Shown here in pieces: positions 44,601 to 47,600 of a DNA stretch of 64,000 bases. The stretch is from Mytilus trossulus (taxonomy: Eukaryota). The notes below the pieces were generated by a model. The model was not told the origin of the DNA. It did no database searches and saw only the letters and a list, made by a program, of their open reading frames with translations. The stretch is taken from NCBI RefSeq assembly GCF_036588685.1, contig NC_086379.1, positions 79,732,001 through 79,796,000 on the forward strand, read 5' to 3'. Made by a program: the position numbers and the translations under genes. Every line of letters starts with the position of its first letter. Position 1 is the stretch's first letter.

Positions 44601-47600
44601 TGAGACATTGTCAAAAAATATTCTTGTCTTATCTTTCTACTTTAAAATAGAGGTTATTAATTATGCTGCATTTATTGTTGGTACTGCTAATCACACAGGT
44701 CTAGTATAAAAAGAAATCTCCATAATGATAAGTCCTGATGTCGTTCCATAAATGTTAAGGGTTTTAAAATTAAGCTGATAACTATAGAATATAACATGAT
44801 ACTTCATCATATTCTGTTCATAATACTTTTCTAAGTAAAGTATTCTTTACTACTCTTATAATTTGGAACTAACAAATAGTTTTGTTTTTTTTCATTAGAA
44901 AGCTATACAAAAAAAATATTCTGGACTTATTCATAACTTTTAAAATACCTGACAAATATTATCTGATGATATATGGGGCCGTCAGAATATAAAGTTGATT
45001 GCTTTGTTTGATATAATTATATTGTATATGTATGAAATAGTGTTAATGTAATGTTTTCATTGTTTTTTATTATCTTAATTCAGAATTTAGAGTAGGAAAA
45101 ACATGTATAAATTATTGTATTTTGTTAATTTTTTTTCAGAATTCAGAGTAGGAAAAACACCAATTCTAATAGCAACAGATGTAGCATCCAGAGGTCTAGG
45201 TTTGTACTCAAAAACTGTCACTAGTGACAAAGTATATATAATGAGTTAGATTATGACCGAATTGAGCTAATTGATCAGTCATTTTGAAGTAAAAACAGTC
45301 TTGATAATCATTTGATCAAAAAATTGTACCATTTATTAAAGTTGTGAGCGGTTTTGCATTATTTCAAACGAGTGTATTTTTTCTATTCACAATACTGATT
45401 TATTATTTTGCTTTTTCTTTTTGAATAGAAGCTTATCTCTTTAAAAAGAAGAGTTCCTGAATCAGCTTTCAATGTTGATCTTACGGAAATAACTTTGTAA
45501 TAGACTTTTGTCTGGTACTGGCGTGGAGGATAATAATAGACTTTGCTTCGTGGAACTGACTGATGCTAAAGGAGGGAATGTGCATTTTCAAAAACTTGCA
45601 AAGAAACCTGAAAATAAGTTAAAAATGGGATATATATTAGAACTGCAGATGCACAAACCCTTCAAGGAATGCACTCCTAAACAGCTTGGAATGTAGATTC
45701 TACAAGACATGTCCTCAAGACTCAGTAAACAAATCAGAGAAGGTATTTGTATGGAGATAAAAACTTGCCAAAACACGAGTAGTTACAAGGGTTAAACAAG
45801 GAATAGAGCAAGCTGGCTGTTACAAATGGCCAAAAATAAATGGACGACCATTTTAATCGTCCATTATTTTTTCTTCTATTATTTTGATACTTTGCAATCT
45901 GTCAGCATACCACAATTATTGCAGTCTTGCTCTTATACATTTTTGTGATAACTATGAGATGTCTATCCCTTTCTCTTCATATATTTGCTTTAGAAATAGG
46001 ACATACATGCATGTATATGTACAAGTCAGCATTTATCTAGTTATCACTATTGCTGCCTTTCTTTATTCAAAAGGTCTTATTTACTGAAAGAGAAAGATCT
46101 TTGAATTAGGGGGTCAAGCAGTTTTGAGCTCTCAACAGTGAACATGTCGATAAAAATGTGTGCTTTAATTGGCCAATCAAAAATATCAGATCATTTTTAT
46201 GACATCTGTACCTTATTGTATTGTACTAGTCATAACGAAGCAGGTACTAAACCTGTTTGTTTTTATCTTTTGGGTTTTTATGTTTACTTTGGCCAAAGCG
46301 CAATATTGTAAAACAACATTGAAGATAACTGGGGGGAGGAAAGGATGAAATATTTTGTCCTTTATTTTAATTCTTTAGCTTTCTCAATAAGTTAAATTTG
46401 ATCCCTTTCCTCCCCTTCAATTATAAATTATTGTATTGCACTATATATTTTTGGGGTTGATTGTTCTTAATTGTTATTTGTTAAATTTATTGTGCAATTC
46501 AAAATCAAGTATTTTGTAATCTAAAGGTCTTGTTATATCCATTATGAATGTATTTTATATGACTGCAAAGTTCTACCTATTGTGGAAATGTATATTGACT
46601 GCAAAGTTATTCTATTTGTGGATGTTGACATTTAAATTTGAAAGAGAATGTAGGTTTTGGCAAGTGACATACAAATAAATATGTGATGGGTTTAAGGAGA
46701 GCGAAGGATATGTGTTGATGCAGCATTCAGATGGAAAAGGAGTGCATGAATCATCAGTCGCAAAAGCAAAGTGCAGTATTGCATGCTCCCACTTGTCTCA
46801 TGTTGTTTTCTGTTGGAAGTGCCTTGGGTTTAAGGTATTCTGATTGCAGGTATTTATTGTATGGATATAAGAACAAGGTAAGTCACTAATCATTTCCTTG
46901 TATTAAAATACTTGAGACCCAGGGTGAGAATGAAAACAGCATGACAGTTTCTTTTTTTCGTTATAAATAATAATTGGGAGTATGCATGTTTTATCAGTAA
47001 ATAAATGCCATGTAACCAGACGTGTGTAAATGAGTTGATACTGTAATAATTAATACTAATTTATATTTATTTGCAGTATTACATTTGTAATGTACCAGTA
47101 CTTATTTGTATTTCTCTTATTTTTTGTCACTTTTGTGCTTTGATCACATTTGGGACATACAGATGTAGACGATATCAAATTTGTGATAAACTTTGATTAT
47201 CCCAACTCATCAGAGGACTATGTTCATAGAATAGGCAGAACAGCTCGTGCAAACAACACAGGAACAGCATACACATTCTTTACACAAAATAACTGTAAAC
47301 AGGCTGCAGATTTGATAAGTGTACTACGAGAAGCCAATCAACAAGTGAATCCAAAACTAGTGCAACTTGGAGAAAGTGCTAGATTCTTAGGAAAAGGTAA
47401 ACATCTTGGCAAATGTTTTGTGTAATAAAGATGCAACATAAATTTTCTTGCAATGTTCAATGAGAGCCTAGCCCTTTATCGGAATTAAGTAACTTCATCT
47501 TTTTTCATGACATTCAAGCCCTGCAAGAAGTGTCTATAAGTATTTTGTCCTCGCAATCAAATATTACCAACTTTTCTTAAGAGTACAAAATTTGGCATCA

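Follow-up and report, generated by a model that had tools for sequence, protein, structure and literature searches.

Selective retention and a predicted long-range RNA fold in intron 11 of a mussel DDX5 gene

The locus described here raises the question of how a DDX5-type helicase gene of a mussel might control itself through one of its introns. Self-control of DBP2/DDX5 by an intron has been known since 1995, and autoregulation of this kind is described for DBP2, p68, DDX5 and DDX17 (Barta and Iggo 1995; Moore et al. 2011; via PMC4695336 and PMC1920232). According to the passages available from these two articles, control in yeast is helicase-dependent and acts through the DBP2 intron, and in human cells it takes place at the level of splicing; no animal cis-element is named in the same passages. 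We followed up a sequence-only reading of 64,000 nucleotides of Mytilus trossulus DNA (contig NC_086379.1, positions 79,732,001 to 79,796,000; in the following, the window), which had proposed that intron 11 of such a gene uses poison exons and/or retention coupled to nonsense-mediated decay (NMD).

The plus strand of the window carries a DEAD-box helicase gene of 13 exons (ATG at 35619, stop at 49827, 731 aa), all intron boundaries of which were set from joints in public transcript contigs. Exon 12 is 100% identical in comparison to the 731-aa protein P0004, named Mytilus galloprovincialis DDX5, and an own-genome search with this exon returned a single close copy, the next-best match reaching 47%. 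Judged by its sequence, the gene is the Mytilus-type DDX5, an orthologue of DDX5/DDX17/Dbp2. Its region of interest comprises the following features, where a slash in a splice site marks the cut and L011 denotes a second mytilid-like gene.

45140-45199, plus strand: exon 11, set by the RNA joints 44351>45140 and 45199>47163; its end codes for motif V (RGL).
45200-47162, plus strand: intron 11, 1963 nt, phase 1, after RGL; mostly spliced, retained in a minority of transcripts.
47163-47396, plus strand: exon 12 (motif VI), from RNA contig joints; matches P0004.
45197-45205, plus strand: constitutive donor TAG/GTTTGT; positions +1 to +6 are identical in L011 and in 11 of the 119 loci listed.
47118-47162, plus strand: weak constitutive acceptor, interrupted by purines, with the tract displaced upstream; the sequence in L011 is nearly identical.

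On re-reading the sequence, all coordinates of the earlier reading proved correct, and so did its placement of the intron after motif V: a long phase-1 intron is found there, with positional matches in related loci. A pattern scan with the end of exon 11 plus GT gave at least 119 loci, 80 of them with flanks, in which the GT at this position is present by construction; introns at the matching position are long in animal-like loci wherever exon 12 could be reached. Both constitutive sites had been called weak. This holds for the acceptor (...GGGACATACAG), which with 8 pyrimidines in 17 positions, 5 of them T, is the T-poorest among the gene's 12 introns, but not for the donor, which is no weaker than seven others: 8 of the 12 donors, that of intron 11 included, score 6/9 against the consensus, and intron 6 also starts with GTTTGT. 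Similarly, it is true that intron 11 contains no transposon, its one own-genome match being itself, unlike intron 8, a multicopy repeat with at least 84 own-genome matches (40 of 902 candidates scored). Intron 11 is not unique in this respect, however, as intron 12 is almost repeat-free as well (6 own-genome matches, five of them of 65 nt).

Retention was followed in public contigs. Among the 24 runs listed, 20 hold at least half of the words of 45100-47420, and seven runs from five studies were examined; having been chosen for containing the intron 11 region, they say nothing on the frequency of retention across tissues. Though no run is recorded as RNA, we treat the contigs as transcript-derived, since joints across all 12 GT..AG introns occur in them. 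The spliced joint of intron 11 occurred in six of the seven runs, and contig cover of the intron in all seven. A single unbroken contig runs over it from 45170 to 47172 in run X1 and to 47190 in X2; elsewhere the cover comes in several pieces, and X15 has no contig cover of 45100-45392. In terms of contig depth, which cannot give the share of the retained form and was not used as an expression level, a unique bin of intron 7 reached 0, 0.87, 0 and 0.26 in four runs, compared to 23, 14.7, 6-9 and about 340-380 for intron 11. The 5′ half of intron 12, which lies more 3′, stayed about 5- to 18-fold below intron 11 in four of four runs. Since the cover of introns 7 and 12 is far lower, DNA contamination and 3′ bias are ruled out and the retention is selective. 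By this comparison with other introns of the same runs, intron 11 is selectively retained, in a minority of the transcripts, and the retention part of the earlier proposal is supported.

For the second mytilid-like gene, L011, exon 12 is 96% identical and intron 11 measures 2341 nt. Besides three matches under 30 nt, its intronic matches to the window are two blocks of intron 11, the weak terminal acceptor and a cassette in intron 12. Block A (45413-45774, 78% identity) begins at an internal acceptor, and block B (46615 onward, about 77-78% identity) contains a consensus donor. No comparable conserved block was found in the portion of intron 10 available in L011. Three internal splice sites had been pointed out in intron 11:

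45393-45460, plus strand: internal acceptor (AG 45427-45428) with branch-like TACTGAT (45393-45399) and early stop TGA (45458-45460); site and early stop are kept in L011.
45740-45748, plus strand: donor AAG/GTATTT, cut 45742/45743, within a predicted rod helix arm; not conserved, GT being AT in L011.
46875-46883, plus strand: consensus donor AAG/GTAAGT, cut 46877/46878, in the predicted loop of helix Q (see below); candidate decoy, with CAG/GTAAGT at the same place in L011.

All three are present in the sequence, and the alignment across bivalves, run against L011 as one second mytilid, divides them: the 45429 acceptor and the 46877 donor are kept, the 45742 donor is lost. Chance rates in the window are about 0.26 per 2 kb for AG/GTATT and about 0.08 per 2 kb for MAG/GTAAGT. 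Because of the chance frequency and the loss of its GT in the second mytilid, the 45742 donor is probably not a real site. The other two are, as their conservation indicates, more than chance, because each is kept in L011 and is located at the outer margin of its conserved block. Joining of the acceptor (45428/45429) to exon 11 would give a short peptide ending at the TGA; in L011 the stop follows after four codons. In block A, no conserved strong donor was found by comparison of the window with L011.

In the complete joint table of runs X7, X10, X11 and X15 (45100-49330) no junction leads to 45429, 45742 or 46877; the table consists of 45199>47163, 47396>49222, 47396>48302 and 48372>49222. 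Unbroken contigs span 45429 in six of the seven runs and 45742 and 46877 in all seven; runs X1, X2 and X6 bear on internal junctions through such bridging contigs alone. A use of the internal sites for poison exons, as proposed earlier, is therefore not borne out by the steady-state contigs. Two candidate events were rejected in this context. A contig break in X11 at 45400/45429 is read as a merge of alleles, as the break expected for splicing to 45429 lies at about 45426/45455. Two further acceptors, 46819 and 46849, could form exons of 58 or 28 nt with the 46877 donor but are not conserved in L011.

True poison splicing might still be hidden by NMD, if the fold described below joined the 45429 acceptor and the 46877 donor as a stop-carrying exon of 1449 nt, or if each site served by itself as an alternative 3′ or 5′ splice site, with products too short-lived to assemble. 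In favor of this explanation, both sites are kept and delimit the conserved region, at a distance of 1449 nt here and 1757 nt in L011. The same holds for the acceptor with the best pyrimidine tract in the first third of the intron, which in 11 of 19 stretches lies between intron positions 200 and 290 (one case is weak; a post hoc count), and for the plant gene DRH1, which according to the parts of the literature available yields cassette, alternative-3′ and retained forms from one intron. Contig assemblies drop rare forms and may lose rare NMD targets, yet minor intron-12 joints were caught in two of the four complete-table runs, contigs bridge the sites, and their depth does not drop downstream of 46877. 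Taken together, we regard hidden poison splicing as unlikely.

In local folds of the window sequence, the internal acceptor and the consensus donor are predicted to be poorly accessible. A hairpin at 45412-45453 is predicted to pair the pyrimidine tract of the internal acceptor (-12.5 kcal/mol; -6.1 kcal/mol in L011), and the unpaired probabilities of 0.22 for the internal acceptor and 0.18 for the internal donor are the lowest of their kind in the gene. The corresponding values in L011 are 0.60 for the acceptor and 0.29 for the donor, so that masking of the acceptor is not evident there.

Folding of the whole intron 11, performed separately for the window and L011, gave matching nested long-range helices in both mussels, with mean pair probabilities of mostly 0.9-1.0. 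The predicted fold comprises about 12 helices of 4-13 bp, in which the two conserved blocks pair across about 1 kb, with arms about 0.7-1.5 kb apart:

45510-45524, plus strand: 5′ arm of the closing helices, predicted to pair with 47005-47021 (probability 0.92-0.97; L011 0.92-0.96); compensatory pair 45518/47012.
47005-47021, plus strand: 3′ arm of the closing helices, from the predicted fold.
45540-45926, plus strand: 5′ arm of the rod (block A), multi-helix, predicted independently in both species.
46597-46772, plus strand: 3′ arm of the rod (block B), from the predicted fold, conservation and arm-to-arm energies.
46780-46791, plus strand: 5′ arm of helix Q, predicted; common to distant animal DDX5/17 introns.
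46975-46986, plus strand: 3′ arm of helix Q, predicted to pair with 46780-46791; the loop contains the consensus donor.

The predicted rod extends from its outer end at 45540/46772 to 45926/46597 on the inside. When the arms are picked on the basis of the fold itself, the arm-to-arm energy amounts to -47.6 kcal/mol in the window and -40.6 kcal/mol in L011 (z about -12); of 60 shuffles in each case, none attains such a value. Control placements of equal geometry elsewhere in the window did not reach the rod energy in any of 31 cases, the lowest being -26.2. For blocks defined by BLAST, the energies are -38.0 and -29.3 kcal/mol (z -4.9 and -6.4; 0 of 30 shuffles each). By alignment, 103 of 200 long-range pairs coincide between window and L011, helix Q being uncounted since its 3′ arm is misaligned there. 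Identity between the mussels is 86% at long-range-paired and 60% at unpaired positions (Fisher p 4e-9, paired vs rest). Compensatory changes are few (45518/47012, 45917/46614 and perhaps 45563/46751), the rod being mostly invariant between the two species, and 0 of 23 RNA-contig variants fall into shared helices, a weakly informative count as about 2.5 are expected.

Two further searches were of low sensitivity. Smith-Waterman self-complementarity between the intron halves gave z 0.3 for the window and 0.4 for L011, scores that were not used as the positive control failed, and a repeat search, which is insensitive to short, interrupted helices, recovered 2 rod helices within its 25 longest pairs. 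Long-range pairing by itself does not distinguish intron 11, since intron 1 holds a stronger, repeat-like inverted pair; what sets intron 11 apart is that the predicted pairing lies within the only conserved blocks.

The conserved blocks could also represent a stand-alone intronic RNA, such as a miRNA or snoRNA host, with retention reflecting slow splicing of a weak intron. A vertebrate DDX5 intron is reported, in the source passages available, to encode a miRNA. In an Rfam scan of nine loci, none of the four matches reached the gathering score: mir-3064 was matched weakly in L046 (E 0.14) and L049 (E 0.65), the window intron and L011 have no such match, and MicX appeared at E 0.11 only, below threshold. 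With arms about 0.7-1.5 kb apart and conservation that begins exactly at the splice acceptor, an intronic RNA of this kind is very improbable. As a side observation, the weak mir-3064 matches fit the vertebrate label of L046 and L049, which from their peptides we take to be fish DDX5.

Helix Q was searched for in other animals with the mussel arms as query (at least 10 of 11 pairs, a loop of 15-500 nt, a score of at least 17 of 22). Among 21 non-mytilid, non-fungal stretches, nine reach this score (L018, L035, L046, L047, L048, L049, L054, L071, L079), in a set selected with the pairing rule and with a cut-off chosen after the fact, which favors the result. From their peptides, L018, L035, L048, L071 and L079 are presumably cnidarian-like, and L047 (4218 nt) is presumably a vertebrate DDX17. 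The matches always lie in the 3′ half of the intron and are equalled by 0-5 of 300 shuffles each. The background amounts to 0 of 49 loci that we group as fungal-like by peptides and 3 of 155 background tiles.

In an alignment of the nine stretches and the two mussels made by sequence only, 96.9% of the helix Q cells are paired, compared to 28-53% after sliding. Arms picked by sequence alone give 10-11 of 11 pairs in seven of the nine stretches (three among ties) and fail in L048 and L079. The helix measures 11-12 bp, and three of 12 pairs are changed on both sides (A-U/C-G/U-A; U-G/G-U/U-A; C-G/A-U/U-A), a count no better than in the shuffle control (225 of 500). No donor-like site is present in the helix Q loop of L035 or L047.

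Further pairing occurs in these introns. In L048, L071 and L079, too, conserved 5′ blocks pair with conserved 3′ blocks, with z -9.2 for L079 and -4.7 for L048 (0 of 30 shuffles each). A CATGAC/(G)TCATG plus GGAGGG/CCCTC-type duplex is common to eight non-mytilid introns (L008, L035, L046-L049, L054 and the L071/L079 group). With profiles of the CATGAC/GTCATG core built from seven non-mytilid introns, the mussel arms went undetected, the best hits in the window having E 10 and 6.5. Homology of the mussel rod with this core is unsupported, as the core profiles miss the mussel arms (E > 6).

Helix Q might represent an ancient RNA element that predates the split between the cnidarian-like and bilaterian lineages and is present in vertebrate DDX5- and DDX17-type genes, by which these helicases would read their own activity; it would then be the missing cis-element of animal DDX5/DDX17 intron autoregulation. 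We put this forward tentatively and consider it possible, though doubtful.

The fold itself could act as a brake, making intron 11 a slowly spliced intron or one detained through nuclear retention or binding of decay factors, regulated by signals other than unwinding by DDX5, with the internal sites incidental or protective against premature cleavage. In the source parts available, intron 2 of fission-yeast dbp2 lowers mRNA via Mmi1 and exosome recruitment, and in one study the self-suppression of human DDX5 required ATP binding and not helicase activity (PMC3763533, available in part). Also in line with a brake, sequence conservation of the arms outweighs their covariation, as expected of protein-binding sites. 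On the other hand, the pairing of helix Q is maintained through several base changes, and the helices are of a length that a DEAD-box protein can open, its unwinding range being given as 10-15 bp (as cited in the part available of bioRxiv 10.64898/2026.01.23.701338). We consider a brake independent of DDX5 unwinding to be quite improbable.

The reading in which the fold serves as a sensor of the helicase is favored because the closing helices would hide the strong donor and the shared helices, with at most 13 bp, lie within the DEAD-box unwinding range. Here, the fold would aid splicing and hide decoy sites, and excess DDX5 would open it, resulting in retention and decay. With the closing helices formed, the terminal sites would effectively be about 450 nt apart instead of 1963 nt, and the strong internal donor would be hidden, enclosed in the loop of helix Q. 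With DDX5 scarce, the fold would hold and the weak terminal sites would be spliced. With DDX5 abundant, the short helices would be opened and the internal sites could compete as decoys by engaging the weak ends, so that intron 11 would stay in and the message would carry a stop after 467 codons. Such a message would be held in the nucleus or destroyed, and leaky use of the internal acceptor would also lead to an early stop. The direction, with the folded state as the productive one, is inferred by analogy and borrowed from the plant DRH1 case. As a whole, this model appears to us about equally apt to prove right or wrong.

A further event was observed in intron 12:

48302-48372, plus strand: cassette or alternative acceptor of 71 nt with a stop at 48328-48330; joints 47396>48302 (X1, X7, X11) and 48372>49222 (X11 only).

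Inclusion of the cassette would truncate DDX5 to 538 aa with loss of the Gly/Arg-rich tail, and the frame of this form ends 42 nt before the last junction. In L011 the cassette is 86% identical, with both sites, the length and the stop kept; among the 119 loci listed it was found in L011 only. Neither this expressed cassette nor the long-range structure of intron 11 figured in the sequence-only reading. The cassette would provide a second conserved way to remove the Gly/Arg-rich tail of DDX5.

Several known systems resemble parts of this arrangement. With the regulatory intron of DBP2/DDX5/DDX17 the mussel gene shares the gene family, a long intron behind motif V that is inefficiently spliced, and a retained form. 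No RNA structure is named in the available parts of PMC4695336 and PMC1920232, whereas for the mussel intron we propose a long-range fold along with two conserved internal sites and a helix that recurs among animals. The plant DEAD element of DRH1/RH46, a helicase-sensing hairpin driven by unwinding (bioRxiv 10.64898/2026.01.23.701338; PMC12218528; both available in part), likewise resides in a DDX5-like helicase gene, as an intronic structure close to an internal 3′ splice site, and yields non-coding forms including retention. There, a single local hairpin of 20 bp with proven alternative-3′ use and helicase dependence is described, in contrast to the predicted multi-helix long-range fold of the mussel with its enclosed donor and no junction seen.

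Decoy-exon retention, described for SF3B1, OGT, ARGLU1 and DDX39B in the accessible part of PMC6097662, also concerns retained introns longer than 1 kb whose internal sites are conserved and rarely spliced. The known decoys measure 29-369 nt, whereas the mussel sites would span 1449 nt, and gating by structure does not appear in that part of the article. Zipper stems of yeast, for example in the autoregulation of RPL7B (PMC12311795, available in part), resemble the mussel fold in pairing distant parts of an intron, in reducing its effective length and in their link to autoregulation; in that case a ribosomal protein favors the alternative structure, whereas the regulator proposed for the mussel is a helicase. 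In the titles and abstracts searched, no conserved structure was reported for the animal DDX5/DDX17 intron; an earlier description may exist, and the vertebrate helix may already be listed in genome-wide catalogues of conserved intronic pairings. The intron as such is a known regulatory intron; new here would be the direct evidence of retention together with a concrete, partly pan-animal predicted structure.

For the autoregulation of this helicase family, the analysis supplies candidates at the level of single bases: the long-range rod of the mussels, and a helix of 11-12 bp, with compensatory changes, in distant animals including vertebrate-type DDX5/DDX17 introns. If these structures gate splicing, self-sensing of helicases via intron structure would be common to animals and plants, and oligonucleotides directed against one helix could serve to tune DDX5/DDX17 levels. 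The reading of helix Q, if true, would be directly testable in human cells.

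A pyrimidine-rich internal acceptor lies about 210–240 nt into introns orthologous to intron 11 of the mussel DDX5 gene (positions 207–239; loci L002, L009, L018, L035, L048, L065, L071 and L079), and that of the mussel, at intron position 229, is placed similarly, the comparison being post hoc and uncontrolled. Besides helix Q, a second duplex was found at ten orthologous loci (L008, L035, L046–L049, L054, L071, L079 and L088). It consists of CATGAC/(G)TCATG followed by arms of the GGAGGG/CCCTC type, with the 5' element at intron positions of about 130–510. This duplex is common to introns labelled, from their peptides, as fish-like, DDX17-like and cnidarian-like; it was not detectable in the mussel intron.

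Other introns of the gene carry repeats, duplications and a cassette.

Features of introns 1, 8, 9, 10 and 12 (window coordinates)
36464–37360, intron 1: long, near-perfect, MITE-like inverted repeat
41682–43707, intron 8: multicopy element of about 1.6 kb, nearly all of the intron
43930–43979, intron 9: decayed copy of the start of exon 11 (20 nt) with its acceptor
43973–44266, intron 9: tandem duplication of 147 nt, 99% identical
45054–45103, intron 10, 56 nt upstream: another decayed copy of this acceptor and 20-nt exon 11 start
48302–48372, + strand, intron 12: cassette or alternative acceptor, expressed and conserved

Copies of the intron 8 element, which contains a purine-rich insert near 42133–42377, are about 95% identical and occur on many contigs. 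Neither decayed acceptor copy had a splice junction among those listed.

Intron 12 contigs of four public sequencing runs, taken as RNA (X1, X7, X10 and X11), carry a 33-nt insertion at 48874–48878 relative to the window, probably a common allele. In contigs of X1 and X7, the part of intron 12 3' of the cassette is kept unspliced. The cassette cuts DDX5 to 538 aa, and since its stop is just 42 nt ahead of the last junction, transcripts containing it may escape junction-dependent NMD and produce a helicase without its tail.
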